Shown one piece after another: positions 1-42,860 of a DNA stretch of 44,295 nt (position 1 is its first letter; each line of letters starts with the position of its first letter). The stretch is taken from sequence record MZ501070; one strand, 5' to 3'. Below the pieces are notes generated by a model that saw only the letters and a list, made by a program, of their open reading frames with translations, did no database searches and was not told the DNA's origin. The DNA is from Escherichia phage GeorgBuechner. Made by a program: the position numbers and the translations under genes.

Positions 1-552
1 ATGGCAGAAATTAAAGTTAAGGGCCGACGCGCCAAACTGGACGGACGAGTGGCAGTAACCCCGCGCCGTAAACCAGGCGAGCAAACCGAGCATACCAATC
101 TCGGACCTGAAATCGAGTACGGAAAGCGCCGTAAAGGCGGCAAATGTGGACGCCCTACTGACTACCGATCCGTTTACTGCGACCAGCTTCGCCGCTATTT
201 TGCCGACGCCGACGCCTGGCAGGTAAACTACTCTGATAAAGGCGCTGCGCAAGTAATCCCCCGCAACAAAATGCCAACCTTCGGTCGATTTGCCGCGGAA
301 ATCGGCGTGGGCGTAGCTTGCCTGTATCGCTGGGCGCGTGCGCATGAGGAGTTCGCTGAGGCGATGGCGGACGCAATGGAGTTACAAAAAACCTTCCTGA
401 TGGAAGCTGGCGGCGTGACCATCGCGGCGGGCTTCGCTACCTTCCTGCTTAAAGCTAACCACGGCGTCAGGGACGATGTACCGCTGGATGACGACGAAGA
501 TGATAACGGCGACGTCGTTGTGGAACCTACCGGCAAAGGCCAGGGTGATTAA
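1..552 (+). CDS. terS: Terminase small subunit (putative); ATG at window position 1, true start may lie upstream
   Basis: 183 aa ORF immediately upstream of and overlapping (ATGA-type) the large terminase; HTH-like segment FGRFAAEIGVGVACLYRWA; acidic C-terminus; position in packaging module. Confidence 0.6.
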   Translation: MAEIKVKGRRAKLDGRVAVTPRRKPGEQTEHTNLGPEIEYGKRRKGGKCGRPTDYRSVYCDQLRRYFADADAWQVNYSDKGAAQVIPRNKMPTFGRFAAEIGVGVACLYRWARAHEEFAEAMADAMELQKTFLMEAGGVTIAAGFATFLLKANHGVRDDVPLDDDEDDNGDVVVEPTGKGQGD

Positions 553-5003: not shown

Positions 5004-5768
5004 TTAGCGCGGAATACCGCAAATCTCGTTTAGTGTTTTCACGTCCAGCGCCACCGCCGTGGACTTCGGCTTGTCCGGGTAAGGAATGAACTGTTCCACT
5101 TCAGGCCACGCCTTGATCAGCTTCTTATCGGTATTGTGCATATCCAGCACGCCGGTAACAGTTAGTTTGAACGCGTCATACTTAGCACGCAACTCACGGC
5201 GGGCCTTGTCGTTACGGTCCAGGCGCTTACAGAAATCATGGTCCGCCGGGTAGTCTATACGACCGCGTGGTATATAGATCGGCAGCGCTTTCCCGTCGTC
5301 GTCGACTTCGCACACTGACGCTAACAAAATTTCCTCATACCCTGGCACAATATCGCCGAGATCGGGAGACAGTTTATTCATGTATTTATACTCCCAGTAT
5401 CCGCGATGTACTCGGAATCGGTGTCCGTCTCCGCTCAATGACACGGTACGGACGTTTCCACCTGCGTTGATTTCGAAAGTGGCGTCGTAAACGCTGCCTA
5501 TACCATATGGGTTGTCGGCGTCATGTCTATACGTCGCCTTATTGGTGTACACACAGACGCCGTACATCTTCGACGGGTCATCGCCGATTTCTTCAATGCG
5601 CTCACGTAGCTCGGCGAACGTATGAATGCCTTCCGGCATACAGTCCAGCGTAATGGCGTACGCCAGATTTCGAGAGTCCATCATGATTGATTTGGCTTCG
5701 GTCGCGATTTCGTGGTCGCGCAGGATGTTAGCCAGAATCTGGTTTTTAATGTCTTTTGTCAGTCTCAT
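5004..5768 (-). CDS. Hypothetical protein encoded in reverse orientation inside the head gene cluster (moron-like accessory gene)
   Basis: 254 aa from ATG at 5766-5768 (MRLTKDIKNQ...) with SD ACGAGGA; the longer track ORF 5004..6215 is a low-complexity N-terminal extension overlapping the scaffold gene and is rejected; no recognisable motifs. Confidence 0.6.
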   Translation of the reverse strand: MRLTKDIKNQILANILRDHEIATEAKSIMMDSRNLAYAITLDCMPEGIHTFAELRERIEEIGDDPSKMYGVCVYTNKATYRHDADNPYGIGSVYDATFEINAGGNVRTVSLSGDGHRFRVHRGYWEYKYMNKLSPDLGDIVPGYEEILLASVCEVDDDGKALPIYIPRGRIDYPADHDFCKRLDRNDKARRELRAKYDAFKLTVTGVLDMHNTDKKLIKAWPEVEQFIPYPDKPKSTAVALDVKTLNEICGIPR

Positions 5769-5790
5769 TTTTGTGTCCTCGTTGTTGGTG

Positions 5791-5813
5791 TGCAACCAAT
5801 ATATGCAACCAAT
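5791..5813. promoter_or_regulatory. Tandem pair of TGCAACCAAT motifs in divergent intergenic region
   Basis: TGCAACCAAT at 5791-5800 and 5804-5813; on the minus strand reads ATTGGTTGCA x2 directly upstream of the SD of gene 5004..5768. Confidence 0.5.
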
Positions 5814-5916
5814 ACGAGGATTGCAAGCGAATTTTGCGATTATTTTTATCGCTGATAATATTAGAAGCGTGAAGTCGAGCGGGTGGCCCGCTCTGCCACA
5901 ATCCCAGGGGGATAGC

Positions 5917-9908: not shown

Positions 9909-10634
9909 ATGGGTTATCAACTTCCTAACGGGTCCAGCGTGCAGATCGGATCCGTATTGGGTGCAGGCATCGCAGTTACGGCAGCGACCAACGCCGCGGC
10001 GTCAATCTCCGATCTTACGAAAGGCTGCGTTATTACCTGTGCGGCTTCGCATGGTCTGGTTGTTGGCGACGTTGTTATGTTCACTAAAACCCCGTGGGTC
10101 CGAGCGCTGAAACGCGCCTTTATCGTGGGTAAAGTAGCCGAGAACGACGTGACGCTGGCGCGCTTCGATACTCAAGACGTAACCAAATACCCGACCGGTG
10201 CTTTCGGCGTAGGAACACCGGGTGAGGTGGTGAAGGTGTCGAGCTTTATCGACTTCCCGTTTATCACTAACGTTGGTGTGTCGGGTGGCGACCAGCAGAC
10301 CACCACCTTCCAGCCGTTGCAGGTGAATGCCGCGATCAGTCTGAACACCACGAAAAACCCGTTGGTCCAGACCTACACTTTCACCCACGACGAAGAAGAC
10401 CCGATCCGCCCGATTCTGGAAGACCTGGACGACACACAGAAAACCACTGTGATTAAGTTCACCAACCCGGCAGCGGCAAGCGGCAAAGGTGAGATCCGCA
10501 TTTACCCGGCTAAGGTGACTTTCCAGAAGATTCCGTCCGCTGAAGTAAACAACGTGGAAACAGTACAAGCCACTCTGACCTTGCAGTCTGATATGGTTAT
10601 CTACCGTAAGGATCTGGTCGAGGAATTGTCTTGA
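9909..10634 (+). CDS. Major tail (tube) protein
   Basis: 241 aa ORF preceding tail assembly chaperones and tape measure; followed by terminator. Confidence 0.75.
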   Translation: MGYQLPNGSSVQIGSVLGAGIAVTAATNAAASISDLTKGCVITCAASHGLVVGDVVMFTKTPWVRALKRAFIVGKVAENDVTLARFDTQDVTKYPTGAFGVGTPGEVVKVSSFIDFPFITNVGVSGGDQQTTTFQPLQVNAAISLNTTKNPLVQTYTFTHDEEDPIRPILEDLDDTQKTTVIKFTNPAAASGKGEIRIYPAKVTFQKIPSAEVNNVETVQATLTLQSDMVIYRKDLVEELS

Positions 10635-11384: not shown

Positions 11385-11418
11385 GCGGGACAAAACGGGA
11401 CGTCCCGTTTTGTCCCGC
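11385..11418. repeat. 34 bp perfect palindrome GCGGGACAAAACGGGAC|GTCCCGTTTTGTCCCGC
   Basis: Read directly from sequence; an imperfect second copy lies at about 11462-11498; each is followed by a TGCATACCTAYTCA...TGCATAAACT segment. Confidence 0.8.
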
Positions 11419-11527
11419 ACCTGCAAAACTGCATACCTACTCACTCCCATTGCATAAACTCAAAACGGGACAAGCGGGACGTCCCGTTTTGTCCCGCCCT
11501 GTAAATGTGCATACCTATTCAGATTTC

Positions 11528-11702
11528 GTGCATAAACTAGGCGGGACAAAAAGCGGGACAGACAAGGGGCGGGACAAAGCGGGACAGCACCCCGTCCCCG
11601 CCAGTGCTGCCGCGGGTTTCAGCCGATCGGGACAAGCGGGACAAACCCCAGTCTTTCAGACTAGACGGGGGTCAACGGCCCCCCTCGTCTGAGACTGAAT
11701 AA
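11528..11702. repeat. Copy A of a duplicated ~175 bp non-coding element: GCGGGACA iterons plus terminal imperfect hairpin
   Basis: GCGGGACA boxes at irregular 10-16 bp spacing, then CCCAGTCTTTCAGACTAGACGGGGGTCAACGGCCCCCCTCGTCTGAGACTGAATAA; near-identical to 38938..39112. Confidence 0.8.
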
Positions 11703-11765
11703 GATTCGTTTTAAAATCGCTGATACAATGTCAATCGGCAACTGCATAAAAAAGGGGACTGCATA

Positions 11766-24897: not shown

Positions 24898-24950
24898 GAT
24901 GTTTTTCCTTTTTAGTTGGGGGCGGTATTGCCCCCAACGAGTTAACTATA

Positions 24951-24988
24951 TTGCAACCAACCTATTGGTTGCAAGTGAATTTTGCAAC
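24951..24988. promoter_or_regulatory. Inverted-repeat motif TTGCAACCAA-ccta-TTGGTTGCAA followed by conserved TTGCAAGTGAATTTTGCAAC element
   Basis: Perfect 10 bp arms; the downstream 20-mer matches 5821-5840 (TTGCAAGCGAATTTTGCGAT) at 17/20; on the minus strand TTGCAA-18 nt-TATAGT could act as a promoter for gene 24376..24897. Confidence 0.45.
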
Positions 24989-26476: not shown

Positions 26477-26530
26477 CGTGTTGTCTCCAGGTATTAAAAA
26501 GGGCGTCCAAACCGGACACCCTTAATGTAC

Positions 26531-26557
26531 TGCAACCAATCTAATTATGCAACCAAT
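26531..26557. promoter_or_regulatory. Tandem pair of TGCAACCAAT motifs between minus-strand genes
   Basis: TGCAACCAAT at 26531-26540 and 26548-26557; on the minus strand followed by an imperfect hairpin plus T-run and the SD of gene 26234..26476. Confidence 0.5.
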
Positions 26558-26881
26558 TTACGCATAAAAGTTTGGGTCGCGTGCAACGTCTACCAGGTAA
26601 AGGTTGCTTATGCGGTTGCCGTAGTGCCCTGGAGTGCGCTGGCGGCACACAACGGCGAAGCCTGGGGGGATTGTATTGCCCGTCTCAATAATCCACGCCA
26701 CGCGTGCGCCAGACAGCGTCTTGCCGTTGCATTCGATACGAGTACCGCCATCTGCAGTATTGAGGTTGCCAATTTTGCAGCCGGTGGATTTCAGGCGAAT
26801 TACGCCGGTTTTGCTGTCGTAGGTGAATAGCTGGTTAGTCATTGCGACCGAAAAGTCGATGGCTTCGAATGAAGTATTCAT
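26558..26881 (-). CDS. HNH endonuclease-like protein (HNH_3-like, possibly degenerate)
   Basis: 107 aa; SGARVAWIIETGNTIPPGFAVVCRQRTPGHYGNRISNLYL resembles the HNH_3 pattern, but the usual D-H dyad position reads C-R; SD ACGAGGA. Confidence 0.4.
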   Translation of the reverse strand: MNTSFEAIDFSVAMTNQLFTYDSKTGVIRLKSTGCKIGNLNTADGGTRIECNGKTLSGARVAWIIETGNTIPPGFAVVCRQRTPGHYGNRISNLYLVDVARDPNFYA

Positions 26882-32284: not shown

Positions 32285-33019
32285 TTAACGGCGGCGACGT
32301 TTACGTGGTGCTTCGTCTTCGTCGTCGTCCTCATCTTCATCATCGCGTGGTTTACGACGTTTGCGAGGTTTTTCATCTTCCTCATCGTCGTCATCATCGC
32401 GGCGCTTGGACTTTTTGGACTTGCGCGGTTTGTCGTCTTCGTCTTCGTCATCGTTGTCCAGGTCTTCGTCGGAACATGAAGACCCGCCACCTCCGAAGGC
32501 TTCGCCGTCTTCACGGAATCGCAGACCCAGCAAACCCGCCCCGAGTCCCTTGCCGTTGGTATTGTTCCACGCCCAAATATCAAGGGACACGTTGCAATAA
32601 CAACCGGAGTAGATCTCCTGGCCTTCAATCTCGTCGCCGTCGATGGTCAGACCCTGTTCAGTCTGCTTCTCGCCTAGTGACGTTTGAATGATTGGCTGTT
32701 TGAACGATTTGGCGTTGATATACAACATGCCTTCGAATTCTTCGGTTACTTCATCGCGCTCGTCGCCATCGCGAACCGCACATTCCTTAGAATCCTGGGC
32801 GTAGTGGCGGTCCATCCACTTATCGGCATTCTTCTCGGATTTCAGCTTGTCGGTGAGCACTGCGCGCGCTGCCGCTTCCACTTTGTCCACCTGCGGATCT
32901 TCTTTATCGAGAAGAATCACGGCACGGTATGCCGGTTTTTGTCCATCCTGTTTAGGGGTATCACGTTCCCAGATTTTCAGGAAGCATACGCGCACATTTT
33001 TCAGGTTGACTTTAGCCAT
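32285..33019 (-). CDS. ssDNA-binding protein-like (gp2.5 / DUF2815-like) with repetitive charged C-terminal tail
   Basis: 244 aa from ATG 33017-33019 (MAKVNLKNVRVCF...) with SD GAGGAA; C-terminal ~60 aa are three acidic-block/basic-block repeats ending RKRRRR. Confidence 0.5.
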   Translation of the reverse strand: MAKVNLKNVRVCFLKIWERDTPKQDGQKPAYRAVILLDKEDPQVDKVEAAARAVLTDKLKSEKNADKWMDRHYAQDSKECAVRDGDERDEVTEEFEGMLYINAKSFKQPIIQTSLGEKQTEQGLTIDGDEIEGQEIYSGCYCNVSLDIWAWNNTNGKGLGAGLLGLRFREDGEAFGGGGSSCSDEDLDNDDEDEDDKPRKSKKSKRRDDDDDEEDEKPRKRRKPRDDEDEDDDEDEAPRKRRRR

Positions 33020-35263: not shown

Positions 35264-35782
35264 TTAATCTTCCAGTTCGAAATAGGTTTCGACGATTTCT
35301 TTTAGCTCTGTGTGGAAGTCTTCGACGTCGTCATCTTCCAGCTTGGCGATTGATTTGATCTCGAACGATTCCAGCAGGTCGTCGAATTCGTCGTTCGCAT
35401 CGTCGTCATCACCACCGGCGATAATCGCGGCATACTGTTTGATTTCGTCGCGCATCTCCGCCAGCGGATCGGCATCTTTCTTACCTTTGCCTTTCGCCGG
35501 TGCTTTTTTGGCCTTAGCCGGTTTTTCGTCTTCGGCGTCTTCGTCGTCGTCATCTTCTACGACTTCTTTTTTGGCCTTACCCTTCGCCGGTGCTTTTTTA
35601 GCTTTAGCCGGTTTTTCGTCTTCGGCGTCATCGTCGCCATCTTCGACAACTTCTTTTTTGGCCTTAGACGGCTTCTTGTCTTCCTGCTTACCAACGGCAG
35701 CGCCAACGGTTTCATAATGCTTTGCAATGGTTTCCAGTGCTACTACGCCGCGAGTGATCAGGTTTACGATTTGCTCAAACAT
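35264..35782 (-). CDS. Acidic/lysine-rich repeat protein, first gene of the leftward early operon
   Basis: 172 aa from ATG 35780-35782 (MFEQIVNL...) with SD GGAG; two ~29 aa tandem repeats KKEVVEDxDDDAEDEKPAKAKKAPAKGK; the longer track ORF is rejected as a 5' leader. Confidence 0.55.
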   Translation of the reverse strand: MFEQIVNLITRGVVALETIAKHYETVGAAVGKQEDKKPSKAKKEVVEDGDDDAEDEKPAKAKKAPAKGKAKKEVVEDDDDEDAEDEKPAKAKKAPAKGKGKKDADPLAEMRDEIKQYAAIIAGGDDDDANDEFDDLLESFEIKSIAKLEDDDVEDFHTELKEIVETYFELED

Positions 35783-36185: not shown

Positions 36186-36515
36186 ATGAATGTAAACGAC
36201 GCAATCGAAATGTTAACGAAGACTGTTTGCAGTGAGACAAGCCGGTCATGGGCATATACCGATGCCGTGGGGGCGGTGTTATTTGAAATCGAACGACTGC
36301 GGCTTACCGAAAAAGAATTGCGCGCGAAGCTGGAATTACTCAACGGTACGGCAGCCAGCAAGCTGCAAAAGCACAATGAAGAAATGGAAGAATACAAAAA
36401 ACAGGTTATCCGTTTGCGCGAGGAGGGAAAGTCATGGGCGATGATCGCTGAGCTAACCGGAATTAATCAGAGCACCGTGCGCTCATGGGTACGCAATAAT
36501 AAAACTTCTAAGTAA
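36186..36515 (+). CDS. Putative transcriptional regulator with C-terminal helix-turn-helix
   Basis: 109 aa; C-terminal KSWAMIAELTGINQSTVRSWVRN is HTH-like; central coiled-coil-like segment; first gene of rightward operon. Confidence 0.5.
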   Translation: MNVNDAIEMLTKTVCSETSRSWAYTDAVGAVLFEIERLRLTEKELRAKLELLNGTAASKLQKHNEEMEEYKKQVIRLREEGKSWAMIAELTGINQSTVRSWVRNNKTSK

Positions 36516-36525
36516 GGCAACGGCA

Positions 36526-38790
36526 ATGAGCTTAATTAAATTTGCGGTAACACGACCCGCTAAAAAAGGCGAAAAAGCCAGGGCGGAAAACTTCCAGATG
36601 ACAACCGATGAGTTTTTCGAATTTATCAATGATGCGAAAGAAATCTCCTCGGTGCATATCAACAAGACGGAAGATAAAGCCGAGTATGCGCGCCGCAAGC
36701 GTAAGGCCGATGGGATTGTGGCTTATACTCGTGACGGCTTACGTCGCAAGACCAGTGCGGTGGACCGCTCGATCCTGTTCTTCGATATAGACCGTACCGA
36801 CACCCGCACCTTACGCCGCTGCCGTAAGGCGTTCATCGACGCGGGGCTGGAACACGTATTTCACACCACTACCGGCGACCGCCACCCGCTGAAAGGCGGC
36901 ACGCGTTGCGCCCGTTTCCTGGTGCTCACCGATAGGCCTGTACCTGCTGAAGACCTGGGCCGCGTCCAGTATGCACTATTACACCAACTGGGCCTGTCAG
37001 ATGTGGACTTCGATGATTGTACGAAAGACACAAACCGCCTTATGTACCTGCCTCACCAGCAATCGGTTGTCAAGTGTCACTACGGCAAACGTGCCCGCGT
37101 CCGTCGTCTGCTTCGCCTGGCGGATAAGCTGGGAGTGGAAAAAGAGGAAGTACGACGCGAACTGACCCAGGGCGATGACGGCGTGGCGGACGGTATTCTG
37201 GATTGGTGCTTCCAGGCAGGATTCGAACCGCTGTCGTCCGGTCGTGGTTATGAAGTACCGTGCCCGAACGAACACCTGCACAGTGGTGAAGGGTCCACCG
37301 CAATCATGGTTAAGGATGGCGAGATCCGTTTCAAGTGTATGCACACCGGCAACGAGTGTTGCTCGGAACTGAACAGACACCAGCACCTGGCGCTACGTCT
37401 TATCGGGATCCCGGACCACCTGAACGTCGAACCGCACAACATGTCACGTAAGCAAATCGCCGCCATCCTCCCTGGACTGGACGACGAGGAAGTGGAATCG
37501 TGCTATGCGCATATCGTTGATGCGGTCGGAGACGGCGACGAGTACGGCGTATGTACCGACGCTGACCTGGATAACGAACCGGTCGCACTGTTCAGTAAGC
37601 ACGACCCGATCATAGAAGGCCTGGTCAACTTCAAATCGACCTGGTATATGGCTGGCGAATCGAACATCGGTAAATCGTTCTACGTGCTGGGGCAAATGGG
37701 TGCGGTTGCCGCGGGGATTCCGTTCGGCGGTGCGAAGGTCGTCCAGTCCCATTGCTTCTATTTCGACGCGGAAGGTGGCGAAGCCTCCAACCAGCGTAAG
37801 GAAGCATTGCAGATCAAATACGAGCACGACCTCGACAAGCTGCACATTATCGATCTGCAATCACGCGGCTGGGATATCACCAGCAAATCCGGCTTGCGTG
37901 AAGTTATCAGCTTCATCAACCGCACCGCTAACGGCGAACCGGTTGGCCTGGTGGCGTTCGACTCACTCAACCAGACGGTTGCGCTGCGGTCCGCCGATGC
38001 CAAACCGTTCGACGAGAACAACGCCAGCGATATGGGCGAAGTGGTCAAGGCGCTGAAGGCCATCGCGGAAAATACAGGCGGCAGTGCGGGCGTTATCCAC
38101 CACCCGGCGAAGGGTGCAAACGGCAGCAGATCTCCCCGTGGGTCCGGCGCGCTGCATGGCGCTGTCGATTCTGCGTTCTTCCTGGAGCAACCGGACGACA
38201 ATCAGCCGGGCCAATTGAACCTGTATCACGAAAAGGCACGTAACGGCATCAAGCAAGCGCCACGCGGATTCGTCCTGCTCAAGTGCAAGGTTAAGGTGGA
38301 TCTCCGCAAGTCCGAAGCGTTCGAGTCACACCAGTCCACCAGCACCGGGCCTGACTTCGGCGATGTGGTTGCCGGTTGGGACGTCAAGCCAATTGCATCC
38401 ACACCACGCGACGAGACTCTGTACCTCGTACCGGTCGCCCTGGCACCGTTCGCCATCGAACAGGCGAAGGCCGCGGGCAAAGCAGCAGTTAAGGAAGAGA
38501 ACGCAGCAGGACCGCGCAACGAAAAAGAGAAAGTGCTTTATGCGGCGCTGGAAAAACTGATGGAAGATAACCCGGACCATACCGGATTCAGCAAATCGGC
38601 AATTGTCCGCCAGGCTGGGCTTGCGAAAGGTGGCACATCGACGAAGGCAATTGACGATATGGTCGAGCGCGGAGTGCTAGGTTTTTATACCGATCCGCAC
38701 ACCGGGGCCATCTATGGGTCGTCGAATATCGTCATTAAAACGAATATACCAATCACGCTTTCTGCGACCGATGACGATTTAAAAGATTAA
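36526..38790 (+). CDS. DNA primase/helicase-like replication protein with P-loop ATPase domain
   Basis: 754 aa; Walker A GESNIGKS and Walker B-like VAFDSL in the central region; large N-terminal domain of primase type by position and size. Confidence 0.65.
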   Translation: MSLIKFAVTRPAKKGEKARAENFQMTTDEFFEFINDAKEISSVHINKTEDKAEYARRKRKADGIVAYTRDGLRRKTSAVDRSILFFDIDRTDTRTLRRCRKAFIDAGLEHVFHTTTGDRHPLKGGTRCARFLVLTDRPVPAEDLGRVQYALLHQLGLSDVDFDDCTKDTNRLMYLPHQQSVVKCHYGKRARVRRLLRLADKLGVEKEEVRRELTQGDDGVADGILDWCFQAGFEPLSSGRGYEVPCPNEHLHSGEGSTAIMVKDGEIRFKCMHTGNECCSELNRHQHLALRLIGIPDHLNVEPHNMSRKQIAAILPGLDDEEVESCYAHIVDAVGDGDEYGVCTDADLDNEPVALFSKHDPIIEGLVNFKSTWYMAGESNIGKSFYVLGQMGAVAAGIPFGGAKVVQSHCFYFDAEGGEASNQRKEALQIKYEHDLDKLHIIDLQSRGWDITSKSGLREVISFINRTANGEPVGLVAFDSLNQTVALRSADAKPFDENNASDMGEVVKALKAIAENTGGSAGVIHHPAKGANGSRSPRGSGALHGAVDSAFFLEQPDDNQPGQLNLYHEKARNGIKQAPRGFVLLKCKVKVDLRKSEAFESHQSTSTGPDFGDVVAGWDVKPIASTPRDETLYLVPVALAPFAIEQAKAAGKAAVKEENAAGPRNEKEKVLYAALEKLMEDNPDHTGFSKSAIVRQAGLAKGGTSTKAIDDMVERGVLGFYTDPHTGAIYGSSNIVIKTNIPITLSATDDDLKD

Positions 38791-38865
38791 ATGCTGCGCG
38801 CATTGGTTGCCGATATGGGGATTCCCATATCGCTAAAAGATTAAATCTTGCGCGCATTGGTTGCC
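38779..38865. repeat. 32 bp direct repeat x2 flanking a palindrome, overlapping the primase stop
   Basis: TAAAAGATTAAATGCTGCGCGCATTGGTTGCC and TAAAAGATTAAATCTTGCGCGCATTGGTTGCC (2 mismatches) with GATATGGGgattCCCATATC between them; a third ATTGGTTGCC at 38891-38900. Confidence 0.8.
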
Positions 38866-38937
38866 ATTTTGAGTGTTTTTAGCTGGTCGTATTGGTTGCC
38901 GTGTAGTGTAAATATAATGCATAGTTATGCAGTTTTA

Positions 38938-39112
38938 GTGCATAAAGTAAGCGGGACAAAAAGCGGGACAAACAAGGGGCGGGACAAAGCGGGACAGCAC
39001 CCCCGTCCCGCCCCGGATGGCGCGGCTTCCAGAGGAGCGGGACAGGCGGGACAAACCCCAGTCTTTCAGACTAGACGGGGGTCAATGGCCCCCCTCGTCT
39101 GAGACTGAATAA
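38938..39112. repeat. Copy B of the duplicated ~175 bp GCGGGACA-iteron plus hairpin element
   Basis: Near-identical to 11528..11702 with a diverged central ~40 bp; ends in the same imperfect hairpin. Confidence 0.8.
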
Positions 39113-39171
39113 AATCCGGGGATTGCAAAATACACGGCAGCATGATGCGAAGCGCTGTCGTTGGTGAACTA

Positions 39172-39303
39172 GGCAACCAATGCGAGTTGCATTATGCTGA
39201 GTGAAAATGCAGTTTGCAGCCACAGCAGATAGCGATCAACTTTTTCATACGCATGATTAATATTGGTTGCATTCAGCCTGGCACCCTGCTAGATTGGTTG
39301 CAC
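39172..39303. promoter_or_regulatory. Cluster of three GCAACCAAT / ATTGGTTGCA motifs upstream of gene 39326
   Basis: GGCAACCAAT 39172-39181, ATTGGTTGCA 39262-39271, ATTGGTTGCAC 39294-39303 followed by CACCAACGAGAGGA and ATG. Confidence 0.5.
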
Positions 39304-39325
39304 ACCAACGAGAGGACCAAACAAA

Positions 39326-39805
39326 ATGAAATTTCCAGTAACCATCAAAGACGGTAAATCAACTATCACCTTCACCAGCAACGACCAGGGCACCTATGAA
39401 AGCGGGGCGACTTGCATGTCTACCCTGGACGATGTGATGATTCGTGTTAATTCCGGTAAAGCCTCGATTGTTGACGACAACACTAAGAAGGACCGAACAA
39501 TGAGAGCACTAATCTGGAATTACTCACTGGCCCTGGCAAAGCTGAACGAAGCGAAGGCGCTGAACGGCAACGTAGACCGTGCGCGCCAGTTTGCGACACT
39601 GGCACACCAGTCAATCATGTGTGCGCTAGACGATATGGACGCCAGCATGGATGGCCTGGGTCCGCTGCGTAAGGCAATCCATGAATACGCGCTGGCATTC
39701 TCCCGTGAGCGCCTGGCTTATCGCTTCGGTATTGGCGAGACGGCAGTGACAAACGTCGCCCGGATTAAAGCCCAGCGCGAACTATTCGCCCAGCTTGCGA
39801 AATAA
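39326..39805 (+). CDS. Hypothetical protein
   Basis: 159 aa; SD GAGAGGA; upstream leader nearly identical to that of minus-strand gene 5004..5768. Confidence 0.5.
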   Translation: MKFPVTIKDGKSTITFTSNDQGTYESGATCMSTLDDVMIRVNSGKASIVDDNTKKDRTMRALIWNYSLALAKLNEAKALNGNVDRARQFATLAHQSIMCALDDMDASMDGLGPLRKAIHEYALAFSRERLAYRFGIGETAVTNVARIKAQRELFAQLAK

Positions 39806-42784: not shown

Positions 42785-42788
42785 AACC

Positions 42789-42816
42789 ACAAGCCCGGTT
42801 AATTCCGGGCTTTTTA
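42789..42816 (+). terminator. Rho-independent terminator after the lysis-region operon
   Basis: AAGCCCGG-ttaatt-CCGGGCTT followed by TTTATT. Confidence 0.7.
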
Positions 42817-42826
42817 TTGCTTGACT

Positions 42827-42860
42827 CGCAACCAATTATCAGACTATACTGCGACCAATC
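42827..42860. promoter_or_regulatory. Tandem pair CGCAACCAAT / GCGACCAAT upstream of a strong SD
   Basis: CGCAACCAATtatcagactatactGCGACCAATcaACGAGAGGAG followed by ATG 42881. Confidence 0.5.

Follow-up and report, generated by a model that had tools for sequence, protein, structure and literature searches.

A probable replication origin in the non-coding control region behind the helicase-primase gene of a Dhillonvirus coliphage

The 547-bp stretch (38779-39325) that follows the helicase-primase gene of Escherichia phage GeorgBuechner (sequence record MZ501070, whose 44,295 nucleotides were analysed in full and are called the window below) is the phage's main non-coding control region, with three separable functions. 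An AT-rich tract, an array of short repeats (iterons) and a hairpin at 38901-39107 are, on balance, the probable origin of replication, cognate to the helicase-primase encoded upstream; the assignment draws on comparative linkage and on analogy. To judge from related sequence records, the stretch also very probably contains the packaging start, a separate function for which there are empirical hints. A promoter-like pair of boxes precedes the next gene.

By its sequence the phage belongs to the genus Dhillonvirus and is an HK578/SO-1-like siphophage of E. coli. Window positions 38300-39800 are 90-95% identical to many Escherichia phages of this genus, with Bas84 and phage jat as the top matches (95% each). 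The repeats after the helicase-primase gene (region B) were aligned from 17 genomes and a second site among the tail genes (region A) from 14; the Dhillonvirus collection searched held 157 records, of which a search centred on the terminus base covers 156. Labels such as L031 denote individual genomes in the comparison.

An AT-rich tract, iterons and a hairpin downstream of the helicase-primase gene

The features of the stretch are collected in Table 1. The GC content falls to 0.30 at 38900-38939 and, in region A, to 0.33 at 11500-11539, in a genome of about 0.55. GC-rich repeats lie beside this tract: GCGGGACA is present at 16 sites in the window against 2.1 expected, six of them at 38951-39053 and eight at 11385-11643. 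Seven CGGGAC cores are found in the former interval, which begins 160 nt after the helicase-primase stop codon, and the GGGAC cores are kept in every A and B copy (14-17 genomes). The 49-nt hairpin beyond the array has a free energy of -29 kcal/mol (z = -3.9); its stems are essentially invariant and its loop is variable in all A and B copies. A cluster of short repeats directly downstream of a helicase/primase gene and an AT-rich tract beside the repeats are both hallmarks of iteron origins, and the non-coding module is conserved in A and in B across the genus. Within the AT-rich tract, the spacer of TTATGCA-N7-TGCATAA reads GTTTTAT or its reverse complement ATAAAAC, depending on the genome, a pattern that points to inversion of the whole palindrome as a polymorphism.

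The repeat-hairpin element was found in 157/157 Dhillonvirus records, nearly always at two sites per record, and was not found in 5,426 E. coli genomes or in the plasmid collection. Satellites or plasmids carrying it were considered as well, and none matched in the E. coli genomes and plasmids searched. A previous, sequence-only reading of this DNA had proposed that a copy of an iteron-hairpin element lies after the primase gene; it does, and copies A (11508-11708) and B (38918-39118) share 88% identity. Region A is threefold, with two palindromic iteron modules (11385-11418 and 11466-11497) followed by copy A, whose hairpin occupies 11649-11697. Each of the two modules pairs a perfect GGGAC palindrome with TGCATA..TGCATAAA, and the region holds 14 CGGGAC motifs in total. 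It is present in 157/157 Dhillonvirus records and also where the tape-measure protein has diverged to 77% identity, in one further lineage. Between its hairpin and the tape-measure start codon lies an invariant TGATACAAT (11733-11741), which is extended -10-like and a candidate internal promoter for the tail genes.

By alignment, A and B are separate, stable lineages, with identities of 0.87-0.88 from A to A or from B to B. Concerted evolution was considered and found to be weak, the A-to-B identity being 0.77 within a genome and 0.76 between genomes; only Ioannina carries the same derived repeat changes in both. The array of region B can expand, since UDS3lw (L036, PQ658967.1) has iterons 3-6 and the conserved hairpin in tandem duplicate (400-650). 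As repeats, A and B have been on record since the annotation of Sodalis phage SO-1, and the kind of system is familiar: the GenBank entry of SO-1 has two named 'repeat_region' features, of which region A separates the genes for the tail chaperone and the tape measure and region B follows the helicase-primase, and describes them as direct, inverted and palindromic repeats that are mutually similar.

The origin reading is favoured because CGGGAC arrays directly follow RepA-type helicase genes in distant viruses. An IMG/VR scan for CGGGACA-N-CGGGACA-N-CGGGAC, run without a protein constraint, returned at least 105 new loci; all counts that follow are among the loci listed. Twenty-six carry an AAA_25-type helicase open reading frame (ORF), and 24 of these are very distant viral contigs outside Dhillonvirus, with helicases of 22-29% identity in the helicase core only (hidden Markov model (HMM) E-values 4e-6 to 7e-20). 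In 26/26, 5-13 CGGGAC copies lie at -60 to +300 nt from the ORF stop, on the ORF strand, first as direct copies with a period of ~10 nt and then as inverted copies round a G/C-run hairpin, for example CGGGACacaCCCCtaaaGGGGtGTCCCG. No homolog of the small terminase subunit (TerS), the large subunit (TerL) or the helix-turn-helix (HTH) protein of the window was found in any of the 24 distant loci. An array at a helicase stop codon is not readily explained as a site for a terminase or a regulator, and its link with RepA-type helicase genes across distant viruses looks new.

Closer homologs of the helicase-primase (44-68% identity) are each followed by 440-1100 nt of gene-free DNA. The lineage at 68% retains GCGGGACA and the hairpin there; those at 44-49% have other, lineage-specific repeats at the same place, such as GGGGAGA in St162 (six of its seven sites follow the helicase-primase), four copies of TTCCGCACA in Serratia phage Smarc3 (L004) and TTGCGAGT in L032. 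A second, inverted TTCCGCACA pair lies in the head-gene region of Smarc3 (10436-10465), and the two-site arrangement may not be limited to Dhillonvirus.

The helicase-primase itself begins with an archaeo-eukaryotic primase (AEP)/PrimPol domain that has a Zn-ribbon motif, continues with an AAA_25 (RepA-type) helicase core and ends in a winged helix. Pfam detected AAA_25 only, the isolated N- and C-terminal parts matched no Pfam family, the full-length protein matched no NCBIfam family, and no PDB chain matched by sequence; structure prediction was therefore used, and the AEP fold and the winged helix were assigned from it. Between genera, identity drops from 63-73% in the helicase core to 22-30% in the last 64 residues (691-754), and the predicted winged helix falls in the part that varies most. 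The N-terminal primase HMM matched only 2/24 of the distant loci, and the C-terminal-domain HMMs gave nothing significant against the distant CGGGAC-associated helicases. Those proteins have a conserved C-terminal motif of their own, W..FY....KKKAF.RA, which HMMs do not link to the C-terminus encoded in the window.

In the mechanism that we propose, the helicase-primase would bind the GCGGGACA repeats through its winged helix and oligomerise, then open the AT-rich tract or extrude the hairpin and load the RepA-type helicase ring. The AEP domain would prime, and the phage PolA-type polymerase would extend the primer. Region A, as a second copy, might act as a second origin or as an enhancer like the crr region of phage P4; by analogy this is the simplest reading of it, and it is the least secure step. 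Headful packaging would start at 39222/39223 and run rightwards, and the box pair at 39262/39293 would drive the following operon.

Several points weigh against an origin here. The cumulative GC skew changes direction at ~25 kb and ~36 kb, with gene orientation, and gives no signal at 39 kb. The genome terminus lies ~115 bp downstream of the 49-nt hairpin, and repeats are also typical of pac and cos recognition sites. A second copy amid tail genes is unusual for an origin, and hairpins A and B face the same way, unlike the paired single-strand initiation (ssi) sites of IncQ plasmids. Neither a DnaA-box nor an IHF consensus was found in region A or B. In the motif scan, 79 other loci showed no such helicase (16/79 have <1.5 kb of sequence upstream of the cluster). 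Co-variation of repeat and protein is mixed, the same CGGGAC core occurring with helicases of 22-29% identity and different repeats in relatives of 44-49%, and no homology to the C-terminal domain in the window is detectable in that of the distant proteins. Finally, literature searches on the Dhillonvirus origin, the iterons, the SO-1 regions and the repeat sequence returned no functional study and no report mapping the origin.

Table 1 Features of the control region and of its genomic surroundings. Positions are those of the window; 39222/39223 denotes the cut between these two bases.
Feature	Position	Strand	Details
Helicase-primase gene	36526-38790	+	754 aa; presumed initiator
54-bp tandem duplication	38780-38865	+	32-nt repeat twice: 38780-38811, 38834-38865
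ATTGGTTGCC boxes	38802, 38856, 38891	+	
Palindrome GATATGGGgattCCCATATC	38812-38831		between the two 32-nt repeat copies; no T-run after
ORF of 84 codons, TTG start	38848-39102	+	overlies boxes, iterons and hairpin; judged not to be a gene
Third ATTGGTTGCC box	38891-38900	+	unchanged in 17/17 relatives; 0/10 columns vary
AT-rich tract	38901-38948		GC 0.30 vs 0.55 for the genome; candidate unwinding element
TTATGCA-N7-TGCATAA	38925-38945		inside AT-rich tract
Iteron array	38951-39053	+	GCGGGACA at 38951, 38963, 38979, 38989, 39037, 39046
Inverted GTCCCG	39005		in iteron array; forms hairpin 38976-39014
Conserved 49-nt imperfect hairpin	39059-39107	+	CAGTCTTTCAGACTAGACGGGGG-loop-CCCCCCTCGTCTGAGACTG
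Inverted ATTGGTTGC box	39173-39181	-	+ strand reads GGCAACCAAT; invariant
Conserved block	39200-39255	+	holds genome terminus; invariant or nearly so
Terminus, putative pac cleavage point	39222/39223		...GTTTGCAGCCA / CAGCAGATAGCGATCAAC...; inside block 39200-39255
ATTGGTTGC-orientation boxes	39262, 39293	+	
Promoter-like box pair and leader of downstream operon	39262-39325	+	
TTGCA(T/A)-TAnAnT box pairs	39267/39290, 26549, 29506, 21903		also L031 at 5632
Region A	11385-11765	+	between tail chaperone and tape-measure genes
Small terminase gene terS	1-552		~5.1 kb downstream of 39223 on the circular map
Small terminase to tail fibre genes	1 to ~24.9 kb	+	
Replication and recombination genes	25.1-36.0 kb	-	
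HTH protein gene	36186-36515		109 aa; HTH with sigma-70 region-4-like matches
Block of + strand genes	from 36186	+	109-aa HTH protein, 754-aa helicase-primase, small genes, lysis genes, exonuclease

The genome terminus and competing readings of the repeats

The GenBank record of phage UDS3lw ends in ...GCAGTTTGCAGTTG and begins with CAGCAGATAGCGATCAAC..., which corresponds to 39222/39223 in the window. The PTXU06 record ends and starts at the same place, and ~14/156 Dhillonvirus records are split exactly there, including those of WFI, Zar3M, PEC9, Pandora71 and BMA1. For UDS3lw, PhageTerm analysis gave headful packaging with a preferred pac site (PMC13348001). In the record of Smarc3 a pac site is annotated ~450 nt after the helicase-primase stop, in the equivalent non-coding region. 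The record ends and the PhageTerm statement together are indirect evidence of the preferred fixed DNA end that marks a headful pac site; the usual location in or next to terS is not seen, terS being ~5.1 kb off. The conserved block that surrounds the cut occurs once in the window and is absent from region A.

Three PhageTerm reports on Dhillonvirus ends disagree. Opt-212 was reported to be headful with no pac site stated, and the EE09 paper describes a 10-nt 5' cos site, which conflicts with pac at 39222/39223. A location of the EE09 cos sequence, ATCTTAAGGG, inside 38779-39325 was rejected, as it maps to ~26515 beside another box pair. The EE09 record starts and ends within 26480-26560 (- strand), its junction lying directly after the ATTGGTTGC pair 26532/26549 (TTGCAT-17-TACATT) and before a hairpin, GGGTGTCCGG..GGACGCCC, with a T-run.

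It could be argued that the repeats and hairpin are themselves the recognition site of the small terminase, such that TerS binds GCGGGACA, the large terminase cuts ~115-270 bp to the right, and the link with helicase genes is positional only. The shared ends of ~14/156 records, the UDS3lw result and the Smarc3 annotation are in keeping with this, and the TerS proteins of the three genera, only 28-38% identical, could differ in specificity. Repeats are likewise a feature of established packaging sites, such as the P1 pac hexamers, the lambda cosB R sites and SPP1 pacL/pacR. We nevertheless consider this reading unlikely. In the 24 distant contigs the arrays abut the helicase stop and the locus shows no terminase homolog, and region A has the full repeat-hairpin module without the conserved cut-site block. 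Among 40 records listed, none ends ~115 nt past hairpin A, and the two with ends among the repeats of region A seem to reflect breaks in assembly at a repeat. The distance of 5 kb to terS and the conflict with the other end analyses (EE09, cos at ~26.5 kb; Opt-212, headful without a stated pac site) count against it as well.

No more probable is a purely transcriptional role, in which the hairpins would end the helicase-primase transcript, the GCGGGACA array would be the site of a phage activator or repressor for the promoters after A (tape-measure operon) and B (small-gene/lysis operon), and the boxes described below would be operators. A and B do share the order of repeats, hairpin, promoter-like element and + strand genes, and in one GenBank record the element has an annotated terminator within it. 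However, no T-run follows hairpin A or hairpin B on either strand. The tails of the hairpins at 38812-38831, 38976-39014 and 39059-39107 are GCTAAAAG, GGATGG and AATAAAAT, and the terminator scan found no site at any of the three or at hairpin A. The repeats lie ~90 nt from the putative -10 element in A and ~240 nt from it in B. A candidate regulator is at hand in the HTH protein, with its sigma-70 region-4-like matches; in the 68% lineage, where the repeats are the same, its HTH part is conserved at 85% identity. ATTGGTTGC boxes also overlie promoter-like hexamers at many genes. Against this, the divergent promoter region of the HTH gene has boxes (35986; L031 2515, 2524 and 2678; L032 2513) but never the repeats, and repeats after helicase genes in 24 unrelated contigs would be left unexplained.

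Less probable still is an RNA function of the 200-nt element, either as a structured non-coding transcript that starts from the TATAAT at 38913 or in cis, for instance in antitermination. A hexamer, TATAAT or TATAGT (38913-38918), 3' of the third ATTGGTTGCC box, is indeed kept upstream of copy B in 16/17 genomes, the hairpins are strong, and both copies lie on the + strand ahead of + strand operons. Copy A is without the TATAAT, and the repeats are found in either orientation, as would suit a site in double-stranded DNA. Rfam 15 at gathering thresholds gave no match in the whole window, nor was a tRNA found, and RNAalifold returned the terminal hairpin only, with stems that never vary and consequently no support from covariation.

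Coding capacity can be set aside. The sequence-only reading had described ~540 bp without a convincing gene and had placed selection on the DNA, not on a protein, and the comparison agrees on both counts. In the 84-codon ORF the variable columns number 44/36/29 at codon positions 1/2/3, with no third-position excess; other frames and the opposite strand are also open, there is no ribosome-binding site before the TTG start and no Pfam or PHROG match, and the frame is truncated or shifted in 4-5/17 relatives (L001, L027, L018, L016, L002). It remains open because the + strand is T-poor here. That this ORF and its counterpart at 11450-11692 encode a small protein is scarcely credible, even though the ~84-codon frame is open in 12/17 B copies, an 80-codon frame is open in several A copies and some GenBank records annotate the ORF.

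The origin reading may extend further, and we offer the extension tentatively, regarding it as doubtful. A CGGGAC(A) array with a G/C-run hairpin at the stop codon of a RepA-type helicase gene could be the origin of a widespread replicon type, common to phages as different as enterobacterial siphoviruses and high-GC environmental viruses. Dhillonvirus phages would have gained a duplicate in the tail operon (an origin plus a crr-like enhancer or second origin), in a two-site system physically coupled to the packaging start. No description of such a replicon type was found in the literature searched. Once defined, origin, initiator and packaging start in Dhillonvirus would make a cis element for phage-dependent plasmids, engineering and interference (Per-type resistance), and would explain the assembly breaks and linearisation at the repeats. 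The link between array and helicase gene in unrelated viral contigs offers, furthermore, an easy sequence-based guide to origins in metagenomic phages. Dhillonviruses are among the coliphages most commonly isolated, and the BASEL set includes members, as do panels for phage therapy and biocontrol.

The duplicated gene end, the boxes and promoter-like sites

The sequence-only reading had also drawn its origin argument from a duplicated primase 3' end and from the density of boxes. A 32-bp direct repeat of the last primase codons and stop, with a palindrome between the copies, is present as described: 30/32 positions are identical at a spacing of 54 nt, and the repeat comprises the last helicase-primase codons, the stop codon, TGCGCGC and one ATTGGTTGCC box. 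The palindrome GATATGGGgattCCCATATC occurs once in the window (0.01 expected), folds as a 9-bp hairpin, has a variable loop and is restricted to genomes with the duplication. The 54-bp unit of repeat and palindrome is present in 9/17 aligned relatives and absent from 7/17; in EP23 the first box itself is deleted. It is by this alignment a dispensable insertion/deletion polymorphism, and it cannot be an essential part because 7/17 relatives do without it.

The boxes fared similarly. Three after the primase gene were confirmed as ATTGGTTGCC, and three more motifs before gene 39326 do exist, at 39173 (-), 39262 (+) and 39293 (+), but the latter two are ATTGGTTGC and not in the GCAACCAAT orientation that had been claimed. 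ATTGGTTGC has 16 exact sites in the window against 0.56 expected, a number reached in 0/100 shuffles, and 6/16 fall within 38779-39325. All round the genome the sites are intergenic, usually paired and usually oriented with the next gene. Lineages with an HTH regulator of a different family still have the box, in the form TTGGTTGC, TTGGCTGC or TTGGCAGC. We infer that it is a genome-wide promoter or operator motif; it does not mark an origin, and its density is no evidence for one. Duplication and boxes are accordingly left out of the origin argument, the one as dispensable and the other as genome-wide. What stands of the proposed origin beside the primase/helicase gene is the AT-rich tract, the iterons and the hairpin, for which it is the best reading.

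In several pairs the first box supplies TTGCA(T/A) 16-17 nt upstream of TAnAnT (Table 1). Before gene 39326 the box ATTGGTTGCA provides TTGCAT (39267-39272); 17 nt on comes TAGATT (39290-39295), overlapped by the second box, and then a leader, ACACCAAC..GAGAGGA..ATG, at the start of the gene. In this pair, ATATTGGTTGCA-N17-TAKATTGGTTGCACACCAAC, hexamers and boxes are conserved and the spacer is variable, even where the downstream gene differs, which suggests a promoter or two operator boxes. A strict sigma-70 scan (TTGACA, 16-18 nt, TATAAT, at least 9/12) gave 0 sites in 38600-39450 and accepted none of these pairs, and the promoter/operator role is therefore put forward from position and conservation; TTGCAT-17-TAGATT matches the consensus at 7/12. 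A sigma-54 promoter (TGGCAC in the box spacer) was dropped for its wrong spacing and unconserved spacer.

The leader, in the form ACACCAAC..GAGGA..ATG, recurs before a - strand gene at ~5760. This gene is inserted in the head-gene block (within 5004-5830), and Ioannina has at this position a gene annotated as 'nucleotide modification associated domain 5' (Nmad5). The promoter and leader of the window gene (5765-5807) match those of gene 39326 in inverted orientation with 84% identity, and a divergent box-bearing promoter is common to it and to the + strand scaffold gene.

Other features were noted elsewhere. The interval separating the lysis genes from the exonuclease gene has at 42785-42860 (-) a box pair (ATTGGTCGC, TATAGT, then ATTGGTTGC) and, ~25 nt beyond it, a terminator-like hairpin, GCCCGGaattaaCCGGGC, with a T-rich tail; this could give a very short transcript or be a bidirectional terminator. 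Two boxes form a perfect 24-nt palindrome, TTGCAACCAACCTATTGGTTGCAA, at 24949-24972, where the + and - gene blocks converge and which adjoins a G/C hairpin without a T-run. A short motif, ACGGCAGCA or ACGGCAGCG, lies 3' of the repeat region in several genera, often just before the next ribosome-binding site (window 39133-39141; L032 5590-5600; L033 5880-5890; L004 10603 and 39937). In - strand early genes, 35470-35650 and 32307-32464 contain in-frame tandem repeats of 90 nt and ~60 nt, which read on the + strand as GTC/TTC/ATC-rich runs and CTTTTTTGGCCTTAGCCGG-type units.

Comparison with known replicons and packaging sites

Iterons placed directly downstream of the initiator's own gene and recognised by its C-terminal domain are known from Rep of the staphylococcal pathogenicity islands (SaPI), a self-loading replicative helicase that is fused to an AEP primase or encoded beside one, and likewise from Cch2 of SCCmec (PMC7581432). 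The window resembles these in its helicase and AEP primase, its iterons 160 nt after the stop and its predicted winged-helix end. It differs from SaPI, where the helicase is of the Rep/D5 type (superfamily 3, SF3), in having an AAA_25/RepA-type helicase, in belonging to a virulent coliphage, and in its distant second copy and large conserved hairpin.

The archaeal plasmid pRN1 is also close, in that ORF904 combines an AEP prim-pol, a helicase and a winged helix, and a stem-loop downstream of its own gene is required as origin (PMC4234260). The pRN1 helicase is of SF3 and there are no iterons. In the satellite phage P4, the winged helix of the alpha protein binds the origin repeats (PMC4234260). 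As in the window, one polypeptide holds primase, helicase and C-terminal winged helix, and the P4 ori and crr, two separated cis regions with the same iterons in direct and inverted orientation (PMC4234260), are mirrored by A and B. The alpha protein has a Toprim primase and an SF3 (D5-type) helicase in place of the AEP fold and AAA_25, and its iterons are unrelated.

The IncQ plasmid RSF1010 shares with the window a RepA-family helicase and a RepB'-like primase, although the similarity to RepB' is no stronger than that to other AEP primases. There RepA, RepB' and RepC are separate, whereas the window encodes one fused protein and no RepC-like gene was seen in it; IncQ iterons are of ~20 bp and accompany two opposed ssi hairpins, against 8-nt repeats and one hairpin per copy, both on the + strand, in the window. 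With the pac sites of SPP1, P1 and P22 the stretch has in common a preferred first-cut position within a region and repeats nearby. In contrast to those, the site in the window is 5 kb from terS, and in the distant contigs listed the repeats track the helicase, not the terminase.

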